Source: Candidatus Levyibacteriota bacterium (GTDB lineage: Bacteria > Patescibacteriota > Microgenomatia > Levybacterales > UBA12049). From it: DNA of 64,000 bases. The stretch is from assembly GCA_963716145.1 (NCBI GenBank), contig OY970292.1, positions 405,171 to 469,170 on the forward strand, read 5' to 3'. Below are positions 1,132 through 62,983 of the stretch, in pieces. Numbering within the stretch: the first letter of the stretch is position 1; each line of letters opens with the position of its first letter. The notes under the pieces were generated by a model that saw only the letters and a list, made by a program, of their open reading frames with translations, was not told where the DNA came from and did not search any database. The position numbers were made by a program, and so were the translations under genes.

Positions 1132-2409
1132 CTAATTATCCAATACCTCAATTGCTTTTTCAAGTTGTGCGTCATGCGTCGGATTTTTTTCATCAATTTT
1201 TACCTCAACATCCGGCTTTAACCCTTCTCCGTTTTTTCCGTTCCCGACCCAGGTCCCATTTGGAGTCAGCCATTTTGCTATTGTGACATGAAGTCCTGCT
1301 CCGCCTCCCAAATCCTCTGCTTCCTGAATAATACCTTTACCAAATGACGACTCACCTACCAACGTAGCACGTTTGTGATCTCGCAGTCCTCCCGCGACAA
1401 TTTCTGAAGCTGATGCTGATCCCTTGTTGATAAGAACAACAACAGGCACATCATACAATAATCCTTTACCCGATACGGGAAATCCGGTTCTGTCACCGTT
1501 TTTGTCTTCCTGCATTACAGCGTTGCCGTCTTTTACAAATTCTGAAATAATATATACCGCGTCGTTCAAATAGCCACCCGGATTATTGCGAAGGTCAAAC
1601 ACAACCCCCTTTATATCTTTTTCTGTTTTCAGTCTCAAAGCCGCGTCACTTGATAGTTTCTGCCATTCCTCATGGGTTGTGTCTCCAAATTGAGAAAGCC
1701 TGATATAAATAATCTTGTCATTTGCTATTTTTGATGCAGTTGGTGACTTATTAACAGACTCAATGTCCTTTGCTTGCTTTGTATAACTTGTAAGACTTTT
1801 TACCGAAATAGTATCGCGGGTTATATTCACATCAACAGGCGGCTCTCCTTGCTTGCGAATGATAGCAAGTTTTACATTTGTTCCTTTGGGACCACGAATC
1901 TTTTCTACCGCCTGACTCAGGGTTCACCCGAAAGTCACTTGATCATTAACTTTCACAATCGTATCTCCAGCCTTAATTCCTGCTTTTTGTGCCGGCGAAC
2001 CATCAATTGGTGCAACTACAATTATCTGCTTCGATTTTAGTCCGAGCTCTGCCCCTATTCCCTCAAACTTACCGGCTAGTCCGTTTTTAAAATCATCATT
2101 CAGTTTTGGAGGTAGATAAACAGTGTATGGATCGTCAAGACTATCAACCATTCCGGATATAGCACCATTAAGAATTACCTTAGGATCGATTGCTTTTTTG
2201 TTGTAATAATTTTCCTCAAGCTTTGAAAGAACTGTCCAGAAAAGAGTAAAATCCATATGGGTAACAGATGGAGGCGGCTCTTTGCTCGAAACCTCAATAT
2301 GGGGTTTATAATTATGCAGATCAATATTTATTTTTGTCACGCCGATGACATAACCGATAAGGCCTGCGATAATAACTGCCAATATAATTCGTAATCTGGA
2401 TGGGTTCAT
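1132..2409 (-). CDS. ctpA: Carboxy-terminal processing (S41, tail-specific) peptidase with PDZ domain, interrupted by a single in-frame TGA at 1924-1926.
   Basis: Track ORFs 1132..1830 and 1924..2469 are in the same frame. The sequence GDTIVKVNDQVTFG-TGA-TLSQAVEKIRGPKGTNVKLAI is colinear with S41 peptidases. The start is chosen at MNPSRLRI (2409), giving a 4-nt overlap with the upstream gene. Confidence 0.75.
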
Positions 2410-3164
2410 ATGTGTAAAAATATTATTGATTTTGATTGCGCGTCTAAAAACACTTTCTTGCCTGTCCACTCGGTCAATTTCACCATATCTTGCTCAATAA
2501 TTTCTATGATAGGTGTTTGAAAATTTTTTTCAATTATGTGAGCTATGTCTTGATCTTTTATTTCGGTCCCCACTATTCCAATAACCCCTATTCCGATTCC
2601 TTTTAATAACATTTCGCGGGTAAAACTGCCTCCGATCACAATCTTTCCAATCGTTCGGGCATCAAGGTGGTACGCATCATTTGCTTCAAGCCTGAACAAT
2701 TCCCCTTCGCCTTCCCCCCCTACTGACTTGTTACCAATTACAGTATTCTTATCAGTATTTATAACGATTTCATTATTATTACACAATATAGCTTTACCTT
2801 CAACGGGTGAAATTATGTTTTCTACCTCAGCTGAAGCACTTGAATCTGGCTTGATTACCAGGTTACCGGTATCGCGCTCGTAACGAAGAACTGTTCCCGA
2901 TACACGGCTTCTTAATATTATGCTTTTTGTCCCAAATAAATTTTTTTTCAGGGCTATTATATCCCCTTCAATTACTCTATCGCCAGGATTTTTTTTCAAA
3001 ACTTTTCCTATTGCCGAACGCGAAATAGATAGGGCTTGGGGAATATTTATAATCTCCTCTTCATTAATTTTTTTGACCGCGATAACTTGACCAACTGCGA
3101 CCTGGTCGCCCTCTTGAATACTTGGGATAAAACCATCTGGGAGTGAGATAGGCAGAGAAGTCAT
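2406..3164 (-). CDS. Hypothetical protein (252 aa) with a lipoyl/biotinyl-like barrel at the N-terminus and a Gly-rich C-terminal half.
   Basis: Long ORF. It is directly preceded by an R1-family leader element, as rpsR and ssb are. No family was recognised. Confidence 0.5.
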   Translation of the reverse strand: MTSLPISLPDGFIPSIQEGDQVAVGQVIAVKKINEEEIINIPQALSISRSAIGKVLKKNPGDRVIEGDIIALKKNLFGTKSIILRSRVSGTVLRYERDTGNLVIKPDSSASAEVENIISPVEGKAILCNNNEIVINTDKNTVIGNKSVGGEGEGELFRLEANDAYHLDARTIGKIVIGGSFTREMLLKGIGIGVIGIVGTEIKDQDIAHIIEKNFQTPIIEIIEQDMVKLTEWTGKKVFLDAQSKSIIFLHI

Positions 3165-3256
3165 GAAAATTTCAAATAAGTACCAATTTCAAATATCCAA
3201 TTTCCAAAACCTTAATTTAACATTTGAAATTTGATATTAGAAATTTGAAATTAAAC
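3165..3256 (-). repeat. R1-family AT-rich dyad-symmetric element, copy a. It is a 5' leader/promoter-type repeat.
   Basis: Near-identical to 3500-3591, 4171-4247 and 58881-58966. Shared core: AATTTCAAATAAATACCAATTTCAAATATCCAATTTCTAATC ... GTAATTTGATATTAGAAATTTGAAATT. It ends at the start codon of the downstream minus-strand gene. Confidence 0.8.
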
Positions 3257-3591: not shown

Positions 3592-4164
3592 CTAAAAGGG
3601 AATGTCGTCCGGCATTACTTCATCATCTTGTCCTGAGCCTGTCGAAGGATCACTTTTTTTCTCTGCAACCGGCGCTTCTTCCTCCGCTTTGGCTTCTGTT
3701 TTTGTACTTTTCTTCACTGCTTTTACGCTCTTTTCCTCGGTTGTTTCGGATTCCTGAGTCTCTTCTGCCTCGCCCGTCGAAGCTTTGTTCGTTGGCTGAG
3801 GTTCATCATGTGCGCTTGTTGATCCGGCTTCCTTATTATCAAGCAAGATCATATCGTTTATAATTACTTCTGTTGTTGATTTTTGCGCTCCATCCTGGCC
3901 GGTCCATGATCGGGTACTAAGTCGTCCCTCAACATACACCTTGCGTCCCTTAACCAGAAACTGACTACAAAGCTCTCCAAGCTTATTCCAGGCTATAATT
4001 CTATGAAAATCAACTTCTTCTCTTTTCTCACCTGAGTCGGTTGTCCAGTTCCTGTTGGTTGCTATGCTGAAACTGCAAACTGCATTTCCGTTTGGTGTGT
4101 AACGCAGCTCCGGATTCCTGGTCAAATTTCCGATTAATTGTACTTTATTTAAACTTCTAGCCAT
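3592..4164 (-). CDS. ssb: Single-stranded DNA-binding protein.
   Basis: OB-fold N-terminus (VQLIGNLTRNPELRYTPNG) and the acidic tail ...DDEVMPDDIPF. The start is set at MARSLNKV. Confidence 0.9.
   Translation of the reverse strand: MARSLNKVQLIGNLTRNPELRYTPNGNAVCSFSIATNRNWTTDSGEKREEVDFHRIIAWNKLGELCSQFLVKGRKVYVEGRLSTRSWTGQDGAQKSTTEVIINDMILLDNKEAGSTSAHDEPQPTNKASTGEAEETQESETTEEKSVKAVKKSTKTEAKAEEEAPVAEKKSDPSTGSGQDDEVMPDDIPF
3632..3649. repeat. GC-motif copy CCTGAGCCTGTCGAAGGA inside the ssb C-terminal linker.
   Basis: It encodes PSTGSG. The upstream flank CATCTT is shared with the intergenic copy at 62937. Confidence 0.7.
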
Positions 4165-4170
4165 AGTTTC

Positions 4171-4247
4171 TAATTTCAAATAAATACCAATTTCAAATAT
4201 CCAATTTCTAATCGCATTTGTAATTTGATATTAGAAATTTGAAATTT
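4171..4247 (-). repeat. R1-family element, copy c (upstream of ssb).
   Basis: Sequence identity with the other R1 copies. Confidence 0.8.
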
Positions 4248-4271: not shown

Positions 4272-4577
4272 GTGTCTTATTACATTATCCTGTCTTGTTA
4301 TTCTCTGCTCAAAGTCTTTCGGAATTCCGCCTTTTCCACTTCCGCCTGCTTCAGGATCTGATTCAATTCCCAACATATAATAATGTCCTGATTCTTCGTG
4401 TTGAATTGCGTAAGCTAGAGGTTTTTGTCCCCAATCATCTTCTTTGGTTATTTTAACACCCCCGCCTTGACTCGGCGAGGCAGGTTTCAGCCAGTCTTTA
4501 ATTGTTGTAAATAATTTCTTACGGTCTGCTTCTTTCAAGGATGGCCTCAAAACCAATACCAATTCGTAAAGTCTCAT
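4251..4577 (-). CDS. rpsF: 30S ribosomal protein S6.
   Basis: MRLYELVLVLRPSL... is S6-like, in the conserved rpsF-ssb-rpsR order. Confidence 0.85.
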   Translation of the reverse strand: MRLYELVLVLRPSLKEADRKKLFTTIKDWLKPASPSQGGGVKITKEDDWGQKPLAYAIQHEESGHYYMLGIESDPEAGGSGKGGIPKDFEQRITRQDNVIRHLLLRTK

Positions 4578-4585
4578 AAACGTAA

Positions 4586-5230
4586 TTGTACCACACTCAA
4601 AAGCCTCATCTCAAGGGGGAAAATTCTTACTTGACTTGCAAAATTTTTAAGTTCTATAATTCAACTGTGGCACCAACGGAGACAGAAAGAAGACCTTCAT
4701 CAGCTCACTCACCCGATAGAGTATCAAAAACTCATCGTTCGCGCTCACATACTAGAACAGTAACCTCTAGACTGAGAGAGAGTGTCAGAACTCTGACTGC
4801 TGCTTTTAAACCCAAATCAAAACCTGAAACGGTTTTCATTCCCCCACTTACACCACCGGAATCGCTTGAAGACAAACCTCCCGAGACTGCATTAGATTTT
4901 TTACCTAGCCTGCCTAGGCGAGGTCTCTTACGAGACTTCACTGGCCTTGGATTAACTAAGGCTGAAATTACAGAGGCGCTTGATCCTCTTCTCCCAAGTT
5001 TTCGGGCGGCCAATCCCAATGTTAGAGACAGTAATCTCACCCCCTGGGCCGCACTTGCCGAAAGAGAATTGAGAGCCGCCCACAGAAAAAAATATGGAAT
5101 AGGAATAGCTGATCATGCAGATGAATTAGGATTAGTTACTCCAGAATTAATAGCAAGTGCTGGTAGCAACCCTAAGGAGCCTGCGCATTCTAAAAGAACA
5201 CTTAGAAAAAAACCATCTTTATTGGCCTAG
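4586..5230 (+). CDS. Hypothetical protein. Its N-terminal half is Ser/Thr/Arg/Pro-rich low complexity. The local GC is higher than in flanking genes.
   Basis: A 214-codon open frame fills the whole gap between rpsF and ychF. Its composition is atypical for this genome, and the DNA is rich in short hairpins. I could not confirm that it is coding. Confidence 0.3.
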   Translation: MYHTQKPHLKGENSYLTCKIFKFYNSTVAPTETERRPSSAHSPDRVSKTHRSRSHTRTVTSRLRESVRTLTAAFKPKSKPETVFIPPLTPPESLEDKPPETALDFLPSLPRRGLLRDFTGLGLTKAEITEALDPLLPSFRAANPNVRDSNLTPWAALAERELRAAHRKKYGIGIADHADELGLVTPELIASAGSNPKEPAHSKRTLRKKPSLLA

Positions 5231-5250: not shown

Positions 5251-6390
5251 TTAGCTTCCAATTTTGAATTCCACGACATCTCCATCTTTGACTATATATT
5301 CTTTTCCCTCAAGCCTTGCTTTTCCTTTTTCCCGAGCACCCTTCCACCCGCCTCGACTCGCCCCGGAGTCGGGCGAGGCGGGCCCATTATTCGCAACAAA
5401 GTCTTCAAAACCCACAACTTCTGCTTTTATGAATTTTTTTGTAAAGTCGGTGTGGATTTCCCCGGCTGCCTCCGGCGCGCTTGAACCATTTCTGATAGTC
5501 CATGCCCGCACTTCCTTCTCCCCTGCTGTGAGGAAGGAAATTAAGCCGAGAGTTTGATATGCTTTTTGTATTAATCTTTCTAATCCTGATTGGTCTAAAC
5601 CTAAATCTTTTAAATACTCCTTTTGCTCACCGCTTGATAACTCTGAAAGCTCTGACTCTATCTTGGCGCAAATAACTACCAACTTCTGACAACTAACTCC
5701 TAACGACTCACTAAACTTTTTTGTTACGTTTTCTATCTCAGACGGATTGTATTGATCTTCAGAAACATTGAGTACGACTATTTCAGGTTTAGCAGAAAGC
5801 AAAAAAAGCTCCCGGGACATTTCTCTCTCTTCATCGGTTAAAACAATATCCCTCGCTGGTGTTCCCTGCTCCAAACCAATCCTTAACTTTGCAAGCATTT
5901 CTTTTTTTAGAGGACTTTCTTGCTTCTTACTTCTTGATTCTTGATTCTGAACCGTTGCTAGGTCGGCCAAAATTAGCTCGGCATTAATCACTTCATAGTC
6001 AGATTTCGGATCAACTGCTCCTTCTTTGATGACATCAGCGTCTTCAAACGCGCGGACAACATGGGAAATTATTTTTGTTTCGCGGATGTGGGACAAGAAC
6101 TTGTTTCCAAGCCCTTCTCCCTCGCTCGCGCCTTTTACAAGGCCGGCAATGTCGTAAAACTCTACAGTCGCTGGTTTAATTGGCGGTAAACCAGACATTT
6201 TTTCCTCGTCCTTCGTAATTGCGGCGAGCGTAGCGAGCCGATTGTCAGGTACTGCTACAATCCCAACATTTGGCTCAATGGTCGCAAAAGGATAATTGGC
6301 AGCCAAAGCCTGCTGCTTCTTCAAAAGCGCATTAAACAACGTACTCTTGCCGACATTAGGGAGCCCTACTATACTGATGCTTAGGTTCAT
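5251..6390 (-). CDS. ychF: Ribosome-binding ATPase YchF (Obg-family GTPase with a TGS domain).
   Basis: G1 motif GLPNVGKSTLFNAL and a C-terminal TGS region ...LEGKEYIVKDGDVVEFK. It carries an in-frame 36-nt GC-rich palindromic insertion (PASPDSGASRGG). Confidence 0.9.
   Translation of the reverse strand: MNLSISIVGLPNVGKSTLFNALLKKQQALAANYPFATIEPNVGIVAVPDNRLATLAAITKDEEKMSGLPPIKPATVEFYDIAGLVKGASEGEGLGNKFLSHIRETKIISHVVRAFEDADVIKEGAVDPKSDYEVINAELILADLATVQNQESRSKKQESPLKKEMLAKLRIGLEQGTPARDIVLTDEEREMSRELFLLSAKPEIVVLNVSEDQYNPSEIENVTKKFSESLGVSCQKLVVICAKIESELSELSSGEQKEYLKDLGLDQSGLERLIQKAYQTLGLISFLTAGEKEVRAWTIRNGSSAPEAAGEIHTDFTKKFIKAEVVGFEDFVANNGPASPDSGASRGGWKGAREKGKARLEGKEYIVKDGDVVEFKIGS
5348..5383. 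repeat. 36-nt GC-rich imperfect palindrome inside the ychF coding sequence.
   Basis: CCCGCCTCGACTCGCCCCGGAGTCGGGCGAGGCGGG. It encodes about 12 extra residues relative to YchF homologs and keeps the frame. Confidence 0.7.
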
Positions 6391-6435
6391 AAAGAATATT
6401 TTAACACAAACTTCAGTCAAAACATGTACATAAAT

Positions 6436-7407
6436 TTATAAGACAGAAGTCCTCATATGGTGGGCAACGTATCTTTGAAATGGAAACCTGTGGTTATTAG
6501 TATGCATATCACCAGCTCTGTTAGTGCTGTTATTTTGAAACGCATAAGGTGTATGCCCGTCTCTTGTTTGCGGTTGCCGAGCTATAGAGGGAATCATGTA
6601 TGGTATACCTAACCTCTCCTGATGCCACTCTTGCATAACCCCTATGACTACAGATTTCATAAAATAAAGACCTGCTGCAAGATTTCCATCTTGCAAATTA
6701 TTTATTGTACTGTTGTAAGAACTATCAAAAACTCTACCCGCGTTTTCGCTCAATCCATGAATATCCATTTTATTATCAATCAATCTCTGAAGATCATGAC
6801 TATAACTGATATTATTTCCCACAGAAACAGAACGGTCTTTCAGCCCTGCTACCCGACTAGTTATTGTGCTTAAATAGTCATCTTTCAGACATCTTACTCC
6901 GCTTATATAAGCAGCATCACTTAATTGAATTAAGCTACCTCTCCCAACGTCATCAATACTGCCATTTGTGGCCAACTTTGTGAGCGTATTCATCATTTGC
7001 GCAGGCAAGAGCAATCTATGGAATCGGGTATCTTCCGGAGATCCACTCTCGGAGGCATTACCCGTATCTGGGTATGGTTGAAATACCCAGCGCCCATCTA
7101 GAAACCATTCATGAAGGGAATCACGTAATGAGCTAAGTAGGCCTCTATCTGACTTGGTTAATTCATCAGGATCAGCAATACTAATCTCACTAAAAGCTTT
7201 ATACAAATTTTTAATCGCAGGTACATCTACCCTATCTCTTTCACCTGACATGACCATAGCCATAGCAAGCCCTTCCCGTTGGCCAACAAGTCCTCTTGAC
7301 ACGCCAAGGTTATCTATATCTAAATCTTTTGGGGGCCAAGTCCATTGATAATTTCCCCACTCTAGGATGTCTGGAACCATTAATCTAGCCTCTATTTCTC
7401 CATACAT
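6436..7407 (-). CDS. Hypothetical protein (323 aa) of unknown function.
   Basis: Long ORF. Its amino-acid composition is Arg/Gly/Ser/Asp-rich and poor in Lys/Ile, unlike neighbouring genes. Confidence 0.5.
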   Translation of the reverse strand: MYGEIEARLMVPDILEWGNYQWTWPPKDLDIDNLGVSRGLVGQREGLAMAMVMSGERDRVDVPAIKNLYKAFSEISIADPDELTKSDRGLLSSLRDSLHEWFLDGRWVFQPYPDTGNASESGSPEDTRFHRLLLPAQMMNTLTKLATNGSIDDVGRGSLIQLSDAAYISGVRCLKDDYLSTITSRVAGLKDRSVSVGNNISYSHDLQRLIDNKMDIHGLSENAGRVFDSSYNSTINNLQDGNLAAGLYFMKSVVIGVMQEWHQERLGIPYMIPSIARQPQTRDGHTPYAFQNNSTNRAGDMHTNNHRFPFQRYVAHHMRTSVL

Positions 7408-10238: not shown

Positions 10239-10562
10239 ATGGCGACGAAGAAATCAACCATAGAGTACCTCACAGAACAAATTTCGGAAGCCGGGGTGAT
10301 AAGATCGCGGGCTATGTTTGGGGAGTATGGAATTTACTGTGATGAAAAAATTGTCGCTTTTGTCTGCGATGACCAGCTTTTTGTCAAACCAACCGAAGCA
10401 GGAAAGAAATTTATTGGCAAAATTGTGGAAGCACCCGCCTATCCGGGATCCAAGATGTATTATCTTGTAACCGGCGACTACTGGGACGATGCGGAATACA
10501 TGTCTGAAATTATAAGAATAACAGCCGCAGATCTCCCGATCCCAAAACCAAAGAAAAAATAG
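10239..10562 (+). CDS. TfoX/Sxy N-terminal-domain protein.
   Basis: RAMFGEYGIYCDEKIVAFVCDDQLFVKP matches the TfoX_N signature (MFGGxGLY...). Confidence 0.65.
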   Translation: MATKKSTIEYLTEQISEAGVIRSRAMFGEYGIYCDEKIVAFVCDDQLFVKPTEAGKKFIGKIVEAPAYPGSKMYYLVTGDYWDDAEYMSEIIRITAADLPIPKPKKK

Positions 10563-27275: not shown

Positions 27276-28715
27276 TCATACGCTGGGTAAATTTTCTACC
27301 GAGGTTTTCAGTTTATATTGCCAGTTGCGATCCCCCACTTCTTTTTCGGTTCCGGGGATATTTATTCGATCAGTAGTCAAAAGCCAATCCTGAATTGAAA
27401 TAATTACGGTTTCTGCTGGCGAGTCGATTATTCCATCGCGAAGATTTTTCGCGAATACTTTCTCAACCGAATTGTACTTCACACCGCATGCACGAGCAAG
27501 TGATTTTCTTTGCTTTGGTGATAAGTTCCGCAGATACACAAGTAGTGTCTCCGTATCATGTGTTGTCGTGTACGCAACGGTCAAGGCAGGATAGTTGCTG
27601 ATCTTTGCGTATTCTTTATTTATCTTTTCCTTTTTTTCATTCAGAGCAAATCGAAGAATTTTAATTCCCGGAGTTTTGAGCTTATTAAGAGAATTCCTCA
27701 GCTCGCTGAGATGCTCCCCGCTATCTTCGGCAAATATTGAGAGTCCCGCTCTCTTTCCATAAAGCATCAACTCCTCAAATACAACATGCCCCGGACCTTT
27801 TATGTACTTATCGTTATTTTCATTTGTTAAATCTATCTCTCCGTAATCAAACAGTCCTTTCGCGTGATCAAAACGAATTGAATCAAAAAGAAGCGACAAA
27901 TAATGCAATCTGCATTTCCAAAAATCAACAACTCTTTTGCTTTGAGTCTTATCCCCCCATTTATAAAGCGGATGTCCCCAAACTTGTCTTCCAAAATGAG
28001 CGGACGGACTATCCGGAATTCCTGAGACATAACGTGTCCTGCCGTCTTTCTCAAACTGAAAAACGCCTTGATTAGCCCAAACAAGCGGGCTCTGCATAGA
28101 GACATAAAACGGTAAATCGCCTATCAGTTTGATTTTTAGTTTTTTCGCTTTGTTTTTTAATTCCTTGTACTCTTTATGCAGATGGTACTGAACTAAGATA
28201 TGTTGGTCAATTTCCTTTTTTAATAAGTTGGAATAACTATCTATTGCGATTTTTTTTCTTTTTCTTAAATCAGGAATCCATTCTCTCCAATCATCAGTTC
28301 CCAAGTGATCGCGAAGCGCGCAAAAAAGCGCGTAATCTCCTATCCACTCCTTGTTTTCATTGACAAACACTTCAATCTCTTTTTTGCTCTTGCGCTCTTG
28401 CGCTCTTGCGCCCACTGATAAATACCTTGGGTCCAGTCCAATTCCATATCCTTTATACGGAGATGGAACATGCCGAGTTGCTGAGCCTTTTTCGAGTTGA
28501 GTCTGATGGAGTGGAAGTAATTGCCAGGCCGATTGATTAGTTTTATGCAGCCAGTCGAGGAAATATAAGCCTGTTTCAAAAATTCCCTGATCTTCTTTCT
28601 TGGATTTTAAACTTGAAAGCGCGGAAACCGGCACAAGCGTACCAATAATTTTCTTTTTTTGAGTCACATAGATAATTATATCATCTATGCAATTAGCGAC
28701 TTTGGGGAGGAACAA
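27276..28715 (-). CDS. malQ: 4-alpha-glucanotransferase (amylomaltase, GH77).
   Basis: WQLLPL, LIGDLPFYVS and RIDHAKGLF motifs. It contains the 26-nt (GCTCTTGC)x3 tract at 28389-28414. Confidence 0.8.
   Translation of the reverse strand: MFLPKVANCIDDIIIYVTQKKKIIGTLVPVSALSSLKSKKEDQGIFETGLYFLDWLHKTNQSAWQLLPLHQTQLEKGSATRHVPSPYKGYGIGLDPRYLSVGARAQERKSKKEIEVFVNENKEWIGDYALFCALRDHLGTDDWREWIPDLRKRKKIAIDSYSNLLKKEIDQHILVQYHLHKEYKELKNKAKKLKIKLIGDLPFYVSMQSPLVWANQGVFQFEKDGRTRYVSGIPDSPSAHFGRQVWGHPLYKWGDKTQSKRVVDFWKCRLHYLSLLFDSIRFDHAKGLFDYGEIDLTNENNDKYIKGPGHVVFEELMLYGKRAGLSIFAEDSGEHLSELRNSLNKLKTPGIKILRFALNEKKEKINKEYAKISNYPALTVAYTTTHDTETLLVYLRNLSPKQRKSLARACGVKYNSVEKVFAKNLRDGIIDSPAETVIISIQDWLLTTDRINIPGTEKEVGDRNWQYKLKTSVENLPSV
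28389..28414. repeat. 26-nt tandem micro-repeat GCTCTTGCGCTCTTGCGCTCTTGCGC inside malQ.
   Basis: Identical to 56899-56924 inside dnaX. Both encode ARAQERKS in the same frame. Confidence 0.75.
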
Positions 28716-49567: not shown

Positions 49568-50383
49568 CTAAGTTGTTGCGATGTGATGATTGGCGGATTT
49601 TGTGGAATTTCCTCCAAATCTTCTATCTCTTTCCGCATACTCTTCAAGTGCAGCGTCTAAATCTTCGGGACCAAAATCTGGCCAAAGTTTTTGTGAAGTA
49701 ACAGGTTCTGCATAATGAGCTTCCCATAACATAAAACCACTCTGGCGGTGCTCTCCGCCTGTACGAATAATTAAATCTACGGGGCTCATATCAGGAGCAT
49801 ACATATGACCTGATACCATTTCCTCCGTTACGCTTTCATCAACTTGATCAAGAGGTATTTGTAGCCTTACAATTTCTTTTACAGCGTCAACTATTTCCGC
49901 TCTTCCACCATAGTTAAGGGCAAAATTTACAATAATTTTCCTTCCGTCTTTTGTCTGCTCCTCAACCTCCCTTATTCTTCTTGCAATATCCTCTGGGAAT
50001 TGAGCAACGCGTCCTATTGCTCTAATTCTTATTCCCTCCTCAATAAATCTTTCAACCAAATTACCATCAAAAGTTTCCCGAAACACCCGAAATAACTCAT
50101 TAACTTGTACCTCTCCTCTTTTCCAGTTCTCAGTTGAAAATGCCCATATGCTCAGCTCGCTTATTCCACGTTTTGCTGCGTGAATTACCACAGGCTCTAG
50201 ATTACCATTTAAACCTCTTCTGTGTCCTTCTATGCGAGGAATCCCATGCCCTTCTGCCCATCGTCTATTTCCATCCATAATGATAGCAACGTGGTTGGGT
50301 GCTGACCCGATCAGCTCTCTACCTTCAGGCTCCGCTTTCAATACTCCTCCATTCGATTGACCCGGTCGCTCTATAGCTGTCAT
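49568..50383 (-). CDS. uppS: Undecaprenyl-diphosphate synthase.
   Basis: HVAIIMDGNRRWA ... NYGGR. Confidence 0.9.
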   Translation of the reverse strand: MTAIERPGQSNGGVLKAEPEGRELIGSAPNHVAIIMDGNRRWAEGHGIPRIEGHRRGLNGNLEPVVIHAAKRGISELSIWAFSTENWKRGEVQVNELFRVFRETFDGNLVERFIEEGIRIRAIGRVAQFPEDIARRIREVEEQTKDGRKIIVNFALNYGGRAEIVDAVKEIVRLQIPLDQVDESVTEEMVSGHMYAPDMSPVDLIIRTGGEHRQSGFMLWEAHYAEPVTSQKLWPDFGPEDLDAALEEYAERDRRFGGNSTKSANHHIATT

Positions 50384-51864
50384 TTTTTTCTCACTTTAGC
50401 TCCCTTTTTGCTGTCTTCGAGTACATATCCCAACTTTTCAATCTTATTTCTCATCTGATCTGCCAGATTGAAGCGCTTGTCTTTTCTGAGCTGCTCACGT
50501 TCTCTGACCATTTCTTTAATCTCCTCAGGCACTATTCCCTGATCTTTTTTAATAACTTCCCTATTTTGTGATAGGTTCAGACCCAGCACTTGATCCATTT
50601 TAAAAAGCGTTTTCGCCTTGGCGCCGGTTGGATGGTCAGACTTGACCATGTCCCACATTACAGCCAGGGCTTGAGGCATATTGAGATCGTCATTAATCGC
50701 CTCCAGAAAGCGCTTGTCGTACTCAGGAAGTGATCCGGCCGGCTCATCCCAAAGCGCAATGTCTTGAAGTAGATTTTTCAGAGCATTTTCGGATGCATCA
50801 AGTGAGGGAAAAGTAAAGTTGAGCTCTTTGCGGTAATGCGTCTGAAGATAGAGATAGCGAAGACTCATCGGGTGATACCCGCTTTTATCCAAATCGTAAA
50901 GTCTGTAATTGTTCCCAAGACTTTTACTCATTCGCTCGCCTTGAATCAGAATGAATGCGGAGTGAACCCAGTAATTTACAAATTTTTTGCCAGTTGCGGC
51001 CTCAGCTTGTGCAATTTCATTTGGGTGATGTGTCTGCTTAAGATCTACTCCGCCAGCGTGAATATCAATGGTTCGACTATGCTCACCATTGACCCTGAGC
51101 TTGCCGAATGGGTCAAAACTCTCTGTTAAATACTTCAATGCCATCGCGGAGCATTCTATATGCCATCCCGGAAATCCCAAGCCCCACGGAGATTTCCATT
51201 GCATGTGCCTCTTACTCAATCCTGAGCCTGCCGAAGGACTAAATTTCCACAGCGCGAAATCCTGGGGATTTTTCTTCTCTTCATTTATACCAATCCGGGA
51301 AAAACTAGCTCCTTCCCCGCCCTGAGCTTGCCGAATGGGTTTGATCTGATCAAGATCTGATAATTTCCCGTAATCTTTAAATTTCGAGGTATTGAAATAA
51401 ATCCCATCACTTGTTGAGTAAGTAAATCCTTTCTTCTCCAAACGCGTAACCAGATCAATTTGTTCTTTAATGTGATCTGTGGCTTTGGCAAAGCGTTCAG
51501 GCTGTTCCAGATTTAATGCTTCGTAATCTTTCAAAAATGCTTCCGTGTAGAATTTGGCGACATCCCAAGCAGTCTTTCCTTCTTTTTTGGCAGCTTTCTC
51601 CATCCTGTCCTCCCCGGTGTCAGCATCCCCGAGATTGTCCCCTGTCAGATGCCCGACATCTGTCAGATTCATAATGTATTTCACGCTGTAACCATTGTGC
51701 TTTATAGTTCTGATCAGTAAATCAGCGGTCGTGTAAGTGCGAAAATTTCCGATGTGAGCAAAGTCATAAACAGTGGGACCACAGGTATACATCCCAACTT
51801 GCTTTGGATTAATTGACTTAAAAGTTTCGACTTTTCTGGAGAGAGAATTATAGAGTTTTAGCAT
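50380..51864 (-). CDS. cysS: Cysteine--tRNA ligase. It carries three in-frame copies of the GC-rich 18-nt motif.
   Basis: CGPTVYDFAHIGN, HIECSAMA, KMSKSLGN. Extra loops (SPSAGSGLS, DPFGKLRVNG, KPIRQAQGG) sit at the motif copies. Confidence 0.9.
   Translation of the reverse strand: MLKLYNSLSRKVETFKSINPKQVGMYTCGPTVYDFAHIGNFRTYTTADLLIRTIKHNGYSVKYIMNLTDVGHLTGDNLGDADTGEDRMEKAAKKEGKTAWDVAKFYTEAFLKDYEALNLEQPERFAKATDHIKEQIDLVTRLEKKGFTYSTSDGIYFNTSKFKDYGKLSDLDQIKPIRQAQGGEGASFSRIGINEEKKNPQDFALWKFSPSAGSGLSKRHMQWKSPWGLGFPGWHIECSAMALKYLTESFDPFGKLRVNGEHSRTIDIHAGGVDLKQTHHPNEIAQAEAATGKKFVNYWVHSAFILIQGERMSKSLGNNYRLYDLDKSGYHPMSLRYLYLQTHYRKELNFTFPSLDASENALKNLLQDIALWDEPAGSLPEYDKRFLEAINDDLNMPQALAVMWDMVKSDHPTGAKAKTLFKMDQVLGLNLSQNREVIKKDQGIVPEEIKEMVREREQLRKDKRFNLADQMRNKIEKLGYVLEDSKKGAKVRKK
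51094..51112. repeat. GC-motif copy CCTGAGCTTGCCGAATGG, flanked by TTGACCC / GGGTCAA, inside cysS.
   Basis: It reads DPFGKLRVNG in frame. Same 18-mer as 51321-51338. Confidence 0.75.
51221..51238. repeat. GC-motif copy CCTGAGCCTGCCGAAGGA inside cysS.
   Basis: It reads SPSAGSG, in a different frame from the other cysS copies. 17/18 identical to the ssb copy at 3632-3649. Confidence 0.75.
51321..51338. repeat. GC-motif copy CCTGAGCTTGCCGAATGG inside cysS.
   Basis: It reads KPIRQAQGG, in a third frame. Confidence 0.75.
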
Positions 51865-51960
51865 AGCGAGTCAACAATGAAGCAGCTGCATGTGTATTAT
51901 AGCTTGATTGTGGCAAAAACTCCAATAGCTGCTTATTCTAGAACTGCTAAAAAATTCTTA

Positions 51961-52254
51961 TTATGCAGCAGTTGCAGCCATTTCCCGACGGCGGGCGTCT
52001 CTTTTATCCCGTAATGCACTATATATTGAAAAACCAACTTCATCCATTACAGCAGAGTTTGCCCAATTGCGCTTTCCCTGATCAGGAATTAAAAATCCGA
52101 AACGCCTATCCATTCTATCTGCAGAATCTACGATGATCTCATTGACTGCATGTAGAAGGGCCGGATGTCTTGTTGTAATTTTCCTCTTGTCATGCATGAT
52201 TGGACTGTAATCAGAATCATAACCGGCAATACTCAAAATATGAACTGCTGTCAT
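51961..52254 (-). CDS. Hypothetical protein. It may be the 3' part of a longer disrupted gene that starts at 52516.
   Basis: ORF MTAVHILSIAGYDSDYSPIMHDKRK... An upstream small ORF at 52355..52516 (MNYIEQSIKPAVAPAPAEG...) ends at a TGA. A +1 frame stays open across the gap. Confidence 0.35.
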   Translation of the reverse strand: MTAVHILSIAGYDSDYSPIMHDKRKITTRHPALLHAVNEIIVDSADRMDRRFGFLIPDQGKRNWANSAVMDEVGFSIYSALRDKRDARRREMAATAA

Positions 52255-52526
52255 TATGTGTTTTTCATCCTTTGACCACAGACTCTCTGCGGGTTCGTCT
52301 TCTACGGGAAATTTTTTGTCGCTTATTTGTCTGTTGATTCCTGCTAAAATATCAGGAACGCAAGGATTCTGCAGACTCCATTACTTTTGTCCGCTTCGCA
52401 TCATCCATTCCTTCAAACTGCAATGCTCTACCCAATCTAAACCTGGCTTCAGGAACAAGTCCTTCTGCTGGTGCTGGTGCTACTGCCGGCTTAATACTTT
52501 GTTCTATGTAATTCATAAGTTCCTTT

Positions 52527-52556
52527 CAAAACACAAAAAACCCGCTTTCTGGCGGG
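52527..52556 (-). terminator. Rho-independent terminator (minus strand).
   Basis: Minus-strand sense reads CCCGCCAGAAAGCGGG followed by TTTTTTGTGTTTT. It lies downstream of the 52638..53300 gene. Confidence 0.65.
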
Positions 52557-52637
52557 TGATTTTCTGTAAATCGACACCGCCCTTACGGGTTGACGAGAAT
52601 GACGACTACTGAAAGTGAATTTCTAAATTTGTACATA

Positions 52638-53300
52638 CTAAATATATTTTATCACTAAAAATGACATAATCAAGTAGCAAAATAGCTCTACCCGCTGAGC
52701 ACCGCGGAATGTTTCTGTTTTTTGCTGGCTCATTTTAAGCGCAAATCCCGTTGTTTTTGCCTTCTTACCCATTCTATTGCGTCCTTTTCCTGTTGCTTGA
52801 GGAAGCTGTTCCTTTTCCTCAGCTTCTTTTTTCTTTTTCTGCTCTTCCTCTTCTTCTTGTTGTTTCTTACGCTCTGCTCTCTGCTGCTCCTGCTCGCGTC
52901 GAAACTTCTTAACTCTATCCTCAAGCGTCATCACCGACTCATCAAAATAATGCTGCATGTGAAACATGATATCCTCGGCACCCTTGGCGTCTCCCTTGTC
53001 CAGATATTGCTGTCTGGCTATAAATTTCGCGTGGTCCCCTGCATTACTGGTTCCTGAAAGGATGTGTACTGCTTTCTTGGGTTTAGGAGACGGTGCGGCT
53101 TGCTGCTGAGGATTTTTTGCGTTTGGATCCTTCGGATCTGCTGAAGACTTATCGGTTACACCATACAATTGAGCTACAATGTCGTTTGTTACGGCTTTTG
53201 CTTGCTGCTTGGCGGCGTCACTCAATGCTTTAACGGGTTTTGTGAGAGAAATTCCATTTTCAAAACTTGTTTCTTCGCTCCCAAAAGTATTTTTTGCCAT
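52638..53300 (-). CDS. Hypothetical Lys/Glu/Gln-rich protein.
   Basis: ORF. The C-terminal 30 codons look like read-through. The true stop may lie earlier. Confidence 0.4.
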   Translation of the reverse strand: MAKNTFGSEETSFENGISLTKPVKALSDAAKQQAKAVTNDIVAQLYGVTDKSSADPKDPNAKNPQQQAAPSPKPKKAVHILSGTSNAGDHAKFIARQQYLDKGDAKGAEDIMFHMQHYFDESVMTLEDRVKKFRREQEQQRAERKKQQEEEEEQKKKKEAEEKEQLPQATGKGRNRMGKKAKTTGFALKMSQQKTETFRGAQRVELFCYLIMSFLVIKYI

Positions 53301-60354: not shown

Positions 60355-60540
60355 TAGGGTAAGTATACGCTAACAATTTTTAATTTTCAATTTTTAACTT
60401 GAAATGAAAGCTAAATGTTTTAAAATTTAATTTTGAACCTTGCCTGCCGGCAGGCAGGAATTCATTGAAAATTGTAAATTTTAAATTGAAAATTTTGAGT
60501 TGAACTATAGATTGACATGAACCCTTGACAAACATCCGTA
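60355..60540 (-). repeat. R2-family element, copy c (diverged). It carries an embedded GC palindrome GCCTGCCGGCAGGC at 60442-60455.
   Basis: Similar AT-rich blocks (TTGAAATGAAAGCTAAATGTTTTAAAATTTAATTTTGAAC; TTCATTGAAAATTGTAAATTTTAAATTGAAAATT). Confidence 0.6.
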
Positions 60541-61229: not shown

Positions 61230-62918
61230 CTACTTCATCCGCTTCAAAACTTCATCAAACGTTAACAGTTCCGTTTCTTTCTTGGTTCTTTCCTTCCACT
61301 CGATCTTGCCTCCTGACTTGGTACTGACGACCAGTCTCACAGGAATTCCAATCAGGTCCGCGTCAGCAAATTGAGTACCAGCCGATACATCCTCCCGATC
61401 GTCATATAAAACTTCAATACCCGCCTTTTGTAGCTGCTCATAAACTTTCTCCGCTTTATCACTACTTTTGATAGAAATCAAATGAACATCAAACGGCGCC
61501 ACAGACGCAGGCCAGATAATACCTTTGTCATCATTGCTCACTTCAACAACAGCAGCCATTGATCTACCAATTCCAAACCCATGTGCTCCCATATAGTATG
61601 GAATTACATTTCCTTTTTCATTCATAAAAGATGCGCCTGCCATTTTCAGGGAATAATGCTGACCATATTGGAAAATATTACCCGCTTCAATTCCTCTCTT
61701 TTCAATTAGTTTTGATTTACCATCAGGTGCGAGAAATCCATCCTTTGCTTTTGCAACATCAGCTGTAATTGGATGTTCAAAATCTCTTCCATAATTTACA
61801 TTTCTTGAGTCGGTTTTTTCTTCCTTCTGTCCGCCTATAAAATTCCTAACAGTTCTAAGAGAGTTATCTCCGACAAATTTCACTTTTTTATCTTTGTATC
61901 CCCAGGAGTGAACGTAACCTGATTTTGTTCCAATCGATGCCAGATCTTCATCCGTTGCGTCATCCAAAAGCCCAATGGTATCTGTAACGTGCTCTAGTTT
62001 ATTCTTATTGACTTCAAGATCTCCTCTTATGGTTGCTATAATAATTTCGCCGGTAACCCGATTTTTATAAACAACGTTTTTCACAAACCTTGATGTCGAC
62101 AATTTGTAATACTTCGTGTTTTCAGCCATAGTTCTCACCCAGTCAGGCTGCTCAACAATTTCAAATTCTTTGACCTCTTCTTCGGGATTTACATCTTCAT
62201 GCTTAAATGTCGCGATATCCTCATGGGCAATATATTTTCCGTCTTCAGAAACAAAATATGTACTCTCACCGACTTGACTTTCGACAATAAATTCATCGCA
62301 ATATTCACCACCAAAATATCCATTATCTGCTGGCACAACTTCAACTTTTAATCCAATCCGTTCAAAACTTTTTAAATAGGCTTTTTTAAACAATTCGTAT
62401 TGTTCTATAAATTCTTCATTGCTTCTTGCGAATGTATATGCATCCTTCATCACGAATTCTCTGACTCTTAAAAGCCCGCCCCGTGCCCTTAATTCATCCC
62501 TAAATTTATGCCCGAATTGATAGATGTTGATAGGAAGATCTTTGTAGCTTATCTGAAATTTGCGGACAACATCAACAAACATTTCCTCCGCAGTTCCCCC
62601 AACTGCAAATTTGGCACCGCGGCGGTCTTCAACTGTCATCAGCTCATATCCACCTGATTTATCCCTATTTGTTTCCTCCCATAACTCTATCGGGTGAAGT
62701 ATTGGGGCAAGCATCTTCTGAGCTCCAATCCTATCCATTTCCTCCTCAACAATTTTGGAAACCTTATCATGCACTCTCATACCAAGAGGTAATAGGTAGT
62801 ATCTCCCCGCGGTGCTTTCGCGGATGAATCCTGCTTGATGCAACAATTTGTGAGACGCTAGAGTTGCGTCCTTTGGCACATCTTTAATTGTTTTACCGAA
62901 TAGCTTACTATACCTCAT
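61230..62918 (-). CDS. proS: Proline--tRNA ligase (bacterial type).
   Basis: Class II motifs (FRDELRARGGLLRVREFVMKDAY ... GGRG-type), editing insertion and a C-terminal anticodon-binding domain. 562 aa. Confidence 0.9.
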   Translation of the reverse strand: MRYSKLFGKTIKDVPKDATLASHKLLHQAGFIRESTAGRYYLLPLGMRVHDKVSKIVEEEMDRIGAQKMLAPILHPIELWEETNRDKSGGYELMTVEDRRGAKFAVGGTAEEMFVDVVRKFQISYKDLPINIYQFGHKFRDELRARGGLLRVREFVMKDAYTFARSNEEFIEQYELFKKAYLKSFERIGLKVEVVPADNGYFGGEYCDEFIVESQVGESTYFVSEDGKYIAHEDIATFKHEDVNPEEEVKEFEIVEQPDWVRTMAENTKYYKLSTSRFVKNVVYKNRVTGEIIIATIRGDLEVNKNKLEHVTDTIGLLDDATDEDLASIGTKSGYVHSWGYKDKKVKFVGDNSLRTVRNFIGGQKEEKTDSRNVNYGRDFEHPITADVAKAKDGFLAPDGKSKLIEKRGIEAGNIFQYGQHYSLKMAGASFMNEKGNVIPYYMGAHGFGIGRSMAAVVEVSNDDKGIIWPASVAPFDVHLISIKSSDKAEKVYEQLQKAGIEVLYDDREDVSAGTQFADADLIGIPVRLVVSTKSGGKIEWKERTKKETELLTFDEVLKRMK

Positions 62919-62936
62919 AATAAATTCATCTTAAAT

Positions 62937-62954
62937 CCTGAGCTTGCCGAAGGA
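62937..62954. repeat. GC-motif copy CCTGAGCTTGCCGAAGGA, intergenic, just upstream of the proS start.
   Basis: The exact core sits outside any ORF. Confidence 0.75.
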
Positions 62955-62983
62955 CCGAATAATTTAGAATATTTCATATTAAT

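Follow-up and report, generated by a model that had tools for sequence, protein, structure and literature searches.

The genes of a 64,000-nucleotide (nt) stretch of a Candidatus Levyibacteriota genome (contig OY970292.1, positions 405,171–469,170; referred to here as the window, in whose numbering its features are given) carry a short GC-rich hairpin motif that has entered them as mini-insertions, among them the cysteinyl-tRNA synthetase gene cysS as well as ssb and the former start of proS. The insertion events, the size of the inserted unit, its orientation, its recurrence across sites and genes, and its decay in some lineages are directly observed. We consider it probable, with some reservation, that the unit is a miniature element similar to bacterial REP sequences (repetitive extragenic palindromes), which would spread as DNA, occasionally enter genes, and persist where its translation is harmless.

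Insertions of the motif in cysS, ssb and proS

The core of the motif occurs five times in the window, starting at positions 3632, 51094, 51221, 51321 and 62937, on the plus strand in all five cases and in a form that fits YCCTGAGCYTGYCGAA(T)GGR. These positions had been proposed in an earlier note on this DNA on the basis of the pattern CCTGAGCYTGYCGAAKGG, and upon rescanning each is recovered with either no mismatch (51094 and 51321) or a single one (3632, 51221 and 62937). The resulting density is one copy per 13 kb, in a window with a G+C content of 35–44%, a GC skew that is negative throughout, and approximately 70% of its open reading frames (ORFs) on the minus strand. All five copies are, or once were, within coding sequence. 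Dinucleotide-preserving shuffles of the window lead to an expectation of 0.18 matches at three or fewer mismatches, and block shuffles scanned with the consensus CCTGAGCTTGCCGAAGGA yield 0.01, versus five copies observed, bearing out the earlier claim of an excess well beyond chance. Two additional degenerate copies suggested at the same time do not hold up: the one placed at approximately 5047–5064 corresponds to a match at 5048–5065 with five mismatches, of which about two are expected by chance, and the one at 52694–52711 encodes a native C-terminus (TFRGASG) that is also present in relatives, and is thus not an insertion.

Three of the copies lie in cysS (50380–51864, minus strand), which encodes a cysteinyl-tRNA synthetase (CysRS) of 494 amino acids (aa), as compared with 463 aa in the closest insert-free relatives. 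Counted from the ATG, they begin at 753, 626 and 526 nt and hence fall in three different frames, from which the peptides DPFGKLRVNG, SPSAGSG and KPIRQAQGG are read, just as the earlier note had described. At the first of these (site C), codon alignment with three relatives reveals a clean 48-nt insertion of 16 codons (DPFGKLRVNGEHSRTI; 51067–51114, plus strand) between TTT and GAY ATT, which is lacking in P0004 and P0002. Two hairpins of 24 nt each, facing in opposite directions, make up this insertion. Unit 1 (51091–51114) contains the core at 51094–51111, antisense to the mRNA, and unit 2 (51067–51090), with a core-like loop in the opposite orientation, reads AATGGT-GAGCATAGTCGA-ACCATT on the mRNA strand. 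The stem of unit 2 shows a compensatory double change in P0003, from GTCAATGGT...ACCATTGA to GTCGATGGT...ACCATCGA. Site A is a 24-nt insertion (PIRQAQGG; 51316–51339, plus strand; core 51321–51338) common to P0002 and P0046, beside which lies a second small hairpin (GGGGAA-GGAGCTAGTT-TTTCCC; 51297–51318, minus strand) arising from an extra 9 nt (SFS) confined to carriers of the site A insert. At site B, about 12 nt of ancestral loop have given way to a motif segment of 24 nt (PSAGSGLS; 51214–51237, plus strand; core 51221–51238). In-frame insertion, which had been claimed for all three copies, therefore stands for sites A (24 nt) and C (48 nt) and not for site B in this genome; other lineages carry clean inserts of eight additional residues in the site B loop (e.g., FSPKGD-PAERSGQG-KRQM). 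When the window protein is aligned to a solved CysRS (PDB 3sp1), gaps of 16, 8 and 3 residues appear at sites C, A and B, respectively, in agreement with the suggestion that the copies coincide with lengthened loops of the enzyme.

The inserts can themselves be interrupted. A further 24-nt element is nested within the site A insert of P0007; such a nested unit, at 10538–10561 of contig L332, is a palindromic element different from the motif (CCTCGCCTGACTCGAGCAGGCAGG) and lies within the loop of the cysS site A copy, where it splits GGCAA|GCTCAGG. Peptides that span the inserts include FSPSAGSGLSK and SDPSTGSGQDDEVMPDDIPF. An AlphaFold model of this CysRS, built from a 20-sequence alignment, had a mean predicted local distance difference test score of 45 and was unusable.

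The use of three frames bears directly on whether any element needs to be invoked at all, as opposed to chance, codon or composition bias, convergence among low-complexity loops, or an assembly artefact. Loops rich in Ser and Gly are common, and nothing else speaks in favor of such an origin. Against it, the shuffles produce roughly 0.2 or fewer matches where five are seen, one and the same nucleotide core gives three different peptides, the GC-rich codons involved are atypical of a genome with 39% GC, and the same inserts are present in independent assemblies (ENA, JGI, NCBI and Logan). Because of the shuffles and the three reading frames, we regard chance and artefact as refuted, and assign them next to no likelihood.

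A copy that can be compared with an empty site in the closest relative is found in ssb (3592–4179, minus strand), in the segment encoding the disordered C-terminal linker. Codon alignment with L333 and L334 delimits an insertion of exactly 24 nt (mRNA strand CCTTCGACAGGCTCAGGACAAGAT, encoding PSTGSGQD; 3625–3651, plus strand) at a site that in L333, the closest relative, reads AGT GAT|GAT GAA; the register is ambiguous by 3 nt owing to the GAT repeat. The core itself (3632–3649) encodes PSTGSGQ. Elsewhere in the same linker, TCTGCCTCGCCCGTCGAAGC at 3764–3783 looks intermediate between the main motif, whose 3′ half it has, and a second palindrome family, described below, whose 5′ half it has; the peptide KASTGEAE encoded there is also present in relatives, and the segment may thus be an older, shared copy.

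The fifth copy had been placed just upstream of proS (562 aa; 61230–62918, minus strand). Its position is correct, and the proS ATG follows 19 nt downstream of its end, but the copy sits inside the remnant of an older proS start, and in frame with it. This remnant (62915–62977, minus strand) begins with an ATG at 62977 and reads MKYSKLFG-PSASSG-FKMNLL-stop, with the core at 62937–62954 and a stop codon that overlaps the current ATG (62918). The first 23 nt of proS are present twice, flanking the motif copy (62896–62977, minus strand), which leaves a 20-codon upstream ORF, MKYSKLFGPSASSGFKMNLL; the proS gene of a relative begins ATGAAATATTCAAAATTATTT, and is closer to the upstream version of the window's proS start. 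The window's prolyl-tRNA synthetase (ProRS) also has an additional editing domain lacking in relatives (562 aa versus 409–414 aa), and is unusually divergent over its N-terminal two thirds: identity to the relative just mentioned is 42% in the first 246 residues and 58% in the C-terminal approximately 190, as compared with 75% for CysRS. From these sequence comparisons we infer that recombination gave proS a new 5′ part, and that the motif copy is a former in-frame insertion in the old start.

Alignments with close relatives and solved structures place each of the strong copies in a lineage-specific gap, which is the outcome that the earlier note had proposed to look for. The inserted unit is 24 nt (8 codons) in ssb and at site A, and twice 24 nt at site C. 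Across 120 CysRS homologs, inserts of 8 or 16 residues predominate at four places. Two head-to-tail 24-nt units, CCTGAGCYTGCCGAATGGGCCTGC (read on the other strand as AHSAGSGQAHSASSGQ), are also seen on a high-GC contig (L243, 746–787).

Hairpin anatomy, orientation and probable translation

The constant part of the motif can be written as Y-CC-TGAGCYTGYCGAA(T)-GG-R. Among 47 distinct copies from low-GC DNA, the pair immediately outside CC/GG is of Watson–Crick type in 36 and G·T in 9, a degree of pairing that none of 2,000 shuffles reached; longer stems occur in just one quarter or so of these copies. Because G·T far outnumbers A·C at the flanking pairs (25:4 and 42:3), the forward strand, which tolerates G·T and not A·C, is suggested to be the one that folds. 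The pair of units at site C is the sole stand-out in predicted stability, at −17.8 kcal/mol (z = −2.2). Tandem G·A pairs on the forward strand (UGAG/CGAA) were considered as a further feature and set aside as weakly backed; nearest-neighbor folding favors the forward strand by 0.6–1.3 kcal/mol.

Within genes, the motif lies in one orientation only. In the 120 CysRS homologs, exact peptides derived from the motif number 23 and occur at no fewer than five sites; every one of them corresponds to the antisense orientation, in which the mRNA reads CCUUCGRCARGCUCAGG, and none to the other orientation; the 23 cases are phylogenetically related rather than independent, and we estimate that they represent at least seven events. 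The same rule is apparent in metagenome contigs scanned with CCTGAGCYTGCCGAATGG, for which all statements here refer to the matches listed: on contigs of no more than 0.42 GC, 14 of 14 distinct copies within ORFs of at least 150 aa are antisense, encoding HSASSGQ in ten cases, IRQAQ in three and PFGKLR in one. The ten annotated hosts are RNase J, a GT2 glycosyltransferase, a radical SAM protein, CysRS, an M1 peptidase, a leucyl-tRNA synthetase (LeuRS), two arginyl-tRNA synthetases (ArgRS), a thioredoxin-reductase-like protein and QueA. One ArgRS gene (L287, a low-GC contig) contains three antisense copies, at 5660–5677, 6411–6428 and 6844–6860, and so parallels cysS of the window.

Intergenic copies on the low-GC contigs, a small sample, occur in both orientations relative to neighboring genes (approximately five versus four), and the orientation bias therefore belongs to ORFs. 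We read it as the result of selection inside ORFs, and this reading fits the coding properties of the two strands: in the forward orientation the motif contains TGA in one frame, while in the reverse orientation it is open in all three frames and yields small polar residues for the most part. The forward strand may in addition carry a cost at the level of RNA. Insertion specific to one replication strand is disfavored as the cause, in view of the same small set of intergenic copies. Since frame is kept, stops are absent and the encoded peptides are biased, the inserts are probably translated rather than removed or bypassed; the earlier note's point that the cysS ORF remains intact extends to every insert, each of which preserves the frame and introduces no stop codon.

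The distribution among relatives is patchy. A search of genome contigs with CysRS returned, among the matches listed, relatives of at most 52% identity; the nearest named relative by CysRS is the Candidatus Saccharimonadales metagenome-assembled genome (MAG) GCA_035478335.1, at 82%. Site C is missing from P0002 (87% identity) and present in P0003, P0039, P0044 and P0058 (59–82%), and the site B loop holds different inserts in different frames in many lineages, including a Daviesbacteria cysS of 43% identity. Copies can also decay, because an old insert of eight residues after W(D/E)(D/E)P in CysRS has degraded in the majority of the 29 proteins that carry it (e.g., PSESQG and PILDSG), only three of which retain PS[AT]SSG.

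Proposed mobility and the alternatives to it

Under the explanation that we favor, a 24-nt GC-rich hairpin unit of REP type has been inserted many times into the genes of this Patescibacteria lineage. The copies that persist are alike in that they add whole codons (8, or 16 for the two-unit dimer), run antisense to the mRNA, encode small polar peptides in most cases (PS[TA][GS]SGQ, IRQAQG or PFGKLR), and fall in surface loops or disordered linkers; they are thus probably translated as extra loops. Propagation would be that of a non-autonomous mobile DNA, for instance one whose intermediate is a single-stranded hairpin acted on by an enzyme encoded elsewhere, as with REPs and their REP-associated tyrosine transposase (RAYT); segments of genes that already bear an insert may also pass between related genomes by recombination. 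The earlier note had pictured a small selfish or structured element that tolerates translation. Insertion, patchiness, and recurrence in other frames, genes and lineages uphold that picture, while mobility itself is something that we infer from comparison of sequences.

Several observations weigh against this explanation. Codon alignment shows a replacement rather than a clean insertion at site B. The flanks, which the earlier note had suggested checking for target-site duplications, show no consistent one at the five junctions: GAT is repeated at ssb and TTGA/GAY at site C, and nothing at site A or in rpsF. A Pfam scan of 60 ORFs of the window, which spans 64 kb of a 1.14-Mb genome, identified no transposase, RAYT or other HUH enzyme. 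The folding energies of single units lie at z of about 0 and are thermodynamically weak. The tag that marks the GTAG/CGTC super-families of REPs is lacking, the flanks of the window copies being TTGT, TGAC, CAAT, CCGC and AAAT. Finally, copies shared between orthologs are conserved beyond what the protein demands: 51 of 57 core codons are identical between ortholog pairs, as compared with 43–55% of other codons that specify identical residues, in genes otherwise close to saturation at synonymous positions.

This last point is not predicted by junk DNA alone. Conservation of the core could reflect constraint on the nucleotides, homogenization between copies, or repeated re-insertion, and at synonymous sites it leaves a functional motif possible. 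Such a selected nucleic acid signal, whether a protein-binding site, a hairpin of RNA or single-stranded DNA, or an uptake or recognition sequence, would be kept by selection wherever there is room for it, genes included. In its favor, core codons are identical at 11 of 11 positions between the window and P0039 (versus 45%, p = 2e-4) and at 12 of 13 between the window and P0002 (p = 0.005), and at site C the core half differs from P0003 at 1 of 24 nt, as compared with 9 of 24 in the adjacent half. The core is nearly constant across phyla, one strand seems to fold, as judged from the preference for G·T over A·C, and aminoacyl-tRNA synthetases make up four of the ten annotated hosts, more than their share of coding length (p approximately 4e-4, calculated post hoc and among the matches listed). 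Natural competence is also documented in Saccharibacteria (PMC10633639). On the other hand, close relatives manage without the copies: L004, at 82% CysRS identity, has none in a 21-kb locus, and empty sites are seen in both ssb and cysS. The motif was found in just 1 of 80 other genomes (1.2 Mb, including many Patescibacteria), old copies decay, the strand that appears to fold is absent from the mRNA of host genes, and no Rfam family matches. For an uptake signal in particular, which the earlier note had offered as its alternative, a density of one per 13 kb, the strict orientation in genes, and the recurrence of the same sequence in unrelated phyla are all unfavorable. We therefore consider a selected signal an unlikely origin of the copies.

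Alternatively, the motif may not be mobile at all: a few ancient insertions or slippage products could have been distributed by homologous recombination or transformation and kept alike through short-patch gene conversion. The distribution of site C does depart from CysRS identity, its carriers have the flank ALxYLT in common, proS seems to have acquired a new 5′ part by recombination, and competence is known in the group (PMC10633639). Yet at least five CysRS sites, together with ssb, proS, ArgRS, LeuRS, RNase J, QueA and other genes, would each require an original insertion; around the shared site C insert, most synonymous positions of the flanks have diverged, and so do not reflect a recent transfer; one copy is nested in another; and a tract of 18–24 nt is short for gene conversion. 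Recombination probably contributes to the patchiness of the motif but cannot create many different sites, and as a full account we judge it improbable, leaving a REP-like element as the explanation that we prefer.

Relation to known repeats, and other palindromes of the window

Matches to the motif extend well beyond this lineage. Viral contigs scanned with CCTGAGCYTGYCGAAGG yielded, among the matches listed, copies in sequences ranging from 0.32 to 0.73 GC; in the metagenome and viral matches listed, the 5′ flank is conserved (CCGTTCGY; mostly CCGTTCG or GCYTGC), and some form long palindromes with a reverse copy. Cultured phages gave no match to the motif. A composite of two hairpins, CCGTTCGCCCTGAGCTTGTCGAAGGGC...TGGTTCGACAGGCTCACCACGAACGG, matches unannotated DNA of the cultured bacteria Sphingobium, Polaromonas and Comamonas and of plasmids of Moraxella osloensis, at up to 12 places per replicon in Sphingobium, and in the three Sphingobium or Polaromonas cases examined it lies between convergent genes, the classic position of a REP. 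In Moraxella, the motif is cargo within a transposable element of the miniature inverted-repeat type (MITE) of approximately 130 nt with ends CTATAGTSAA, which carries the two-hairpin composite at approximately 2975–3097 of L210 and 2971–3095 of L209. The L210 copy of this MITE interrupts the start of a umuC-like polymerase gene, and the L209 copy is situated immediately upstream of a gene for a DDE_Tnp_1 transposase; identity of the carrier with MITEAba12 was ruled out, as the ends differ.

The motif itself does not appear to have been described. Neither the window nor five multi-copy loci matched any Rfam family at the gathering threshold, with chance-level matches only at E-values up to 10, and we found no paper describing the motif when searching by sequence, by shorter cores, by the encoded peptides or by topic. 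Several known signals were considered and rejected: a hammerhead core (no CUGANGA), a mimic of a tRNA T-arm or anticodon (dropped on inspection of the sequence), an internal promoter (no −10 box at the correct spacing), and CIRCE, parS and Chi-type sites (different in sequence or length).

The earlier note had compared the motif to a miniature Rickettsia palindromic element (RPE), and in behavior the analogy is apt: like RPEs, the motif is palindromic, lies in frame in functional genes, is read as translated surface segments, and varies in presence among relatives. RPE-1, however, is roughly 100–150 nt long, whereas the inserts here measure 24, 36 or 48 nt and the core occurs in many phyla. 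On grounds of length the motif is not a member of the RPE family, a judgment that involved no comparison of sequences.

REPs are a closer match in size, being palindromes of 20–40 nt that are mostly extragenic and fall into GTAG and CGTC super-families, as catalogued by Di Nocera and colleagues in 2013 (PMC3733652). Some single REP units and dimers are found inside ORFs, those for tRNA synthetases and for replication and repair proteins among them, with the dimers encoding 20–30 aa (PMC3733652). As in REPs, the motif is a short imperfect palindrome, with closing pairs that covary (the 36 Watson–Crick and 9 G·T pairs of 47); folding itself is weak. Its Sphingobium and Polaromonas relatives, like REPs, lie between convergent genes. 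Unlike REPs, all five window copies are in genes or a gene remnant; unlike the GTAG/CGTC families, which combine a long stem with a short loop, the motif has a long conserved center (TGAGCYTGYCGAA) and a stem of 3–4 bp; and unlike intragenic REPs, the gene copies here are strictly antisense. Tag and stem-to-loop proportions place the motif outside both the GTAG and the CGTC super-family.

REPINs are likewise short hairpins, sometimes in inverted pairs, and their movement is attributed to a single-copy HUH tyrosine transposase that acts in trans on single-stranded hairpins. The inverted pair at site C recalls the paired arrangement, but the copies here are mostly single units and no RAYT was found among the 60 window ORFs scanned. 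The absence of a fixed target-site duplication at the five junctions separates the motif from MITEs. In yeast mitochondria, mobile GC clusters and byps, like the units described here, are short GC-rich hairpins that invade the protein-coding parts of a genome rich in AT. The ribosome skips byps, and frame need not be kept; here, in contrast, the preserved frame, lack of stops and peptide bias point to translation, and both organism and sequence are unrelated. DNA uptake sequences (USS and DUS) are lineage-specific, occur about once per kb and lie in both orientations. The resemblance to them is that of a short over-represented motif that is also found in genes and shapes the peptides they encode, whereas a spacing of one per 13 kb, five copies on a single strand, a cross-phylum distribution and discrete 24-nt insertion are unlike them.

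Four aspects seem novel: a unit fixed at 24 nt, strictly antisense placement within genes, the occurrence of one core from Proteobacteria to Patescibacteria, and the recurrent supply of loops to essential proteins of a reduced genome. The findings offer a concrete source for the many lineage-specific protein insertions of ultra-small uncultivated bacteria, indicate that essential enzymes tolerate repeated additions of eight codons, and tie these insertions to a widespread bacterial repeat family that is not found in Rfam or the searchable literature. Being simple and open to testing, the antisense rule and the conservation of the core could reveal how the hairpin is recognized and how it spreads, and inserts of this kind mislead alignment, gene calling and marker-gene phylogeny in MAGs. 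A bolder proposal, which we hold possible if rather doubtful, is that the 24-nt module is the smallest self-propagating DNA element yet described, belongs to a super-family that crosses phyla, and in bacteria of the candidate phyla radiation seeds new loops quite generally in essential proteins (tRNA synthetases, SSB, S6, YchF and RNase J), with the core kept on account of a separate function of the strand opposite the mRNA.

A second family has been inserted in rpsF and ychF as well, so that taking in GC-rich hairpin modules in frame is a general habit of this genome. In rpsF, a 24-nt GC-rich palindrome (CCTGCCTCGCCGAGTCAAGGCGGG; 4461–4484, minus strand) adds eight codons in frame (PASPSQGG), is not present in L333 or L334, and corresponds to a gap relative to S6 structures in the PDB. 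In ychF, a 36-nt GC-rich palindrome (AATGGGCCCGCCTCGCCCGACTCCGGGGCGAGTCGA; 5353–5388, minus strand) adds 12 codons in frame (NGPASPDSGASR), is again not present in L333 or L334, and corresponds to a 12-aa gap relative to PDB 2dby. The arms CCYGCCTCG and CGAGGCGGG are common to the two inserts. In L333 itself (2139–3241), ychF is split in two ORFs of 168 and 199 aa, through a frameshift or an assembly error.

Other palindromes are present in the window. At 60438–60458, an AT-rich spacer contains the GC-rich palindrome CCTTGCCTGCCGGCAGGCAGG, perfect over CCTGCCTGCCGGCAGGCAGG, which includes GCCTGCC, as does the metagenome 5′ flank of the main family. At 27644–27654, within the gene for a 4-alpha-glucanotransferase, the hairpin ATTC-A-GAGCAAATCGA-A-GAAT contains an AT-rich version of the core, and resembles an AT-shifted core variant, CCTGAGTTTATCGAAGG, found in L287 and L208.

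Upstream of cysS, approximately 770 nt (51865–52637) separate it from the next gene (52638–53300, minus strand), as compared with a gap of approximately 80–100 nt in L004 and L331. The small ORFs within this spacer (51961–52254, minus strand, and 52256–52612, plus strand) have no Pfam match and no counterpart in L004 or L331. The next gene encodes a protein of approximately 203 aa, the relatives of which terminate in ...TFRGASG-stop, near 52694–52711, where the window reads GGTGCTCAGCGGGTAG, as though an extra C had shifted the frame and added 17 residues; this may be either a real frameshift or a sequencing error.

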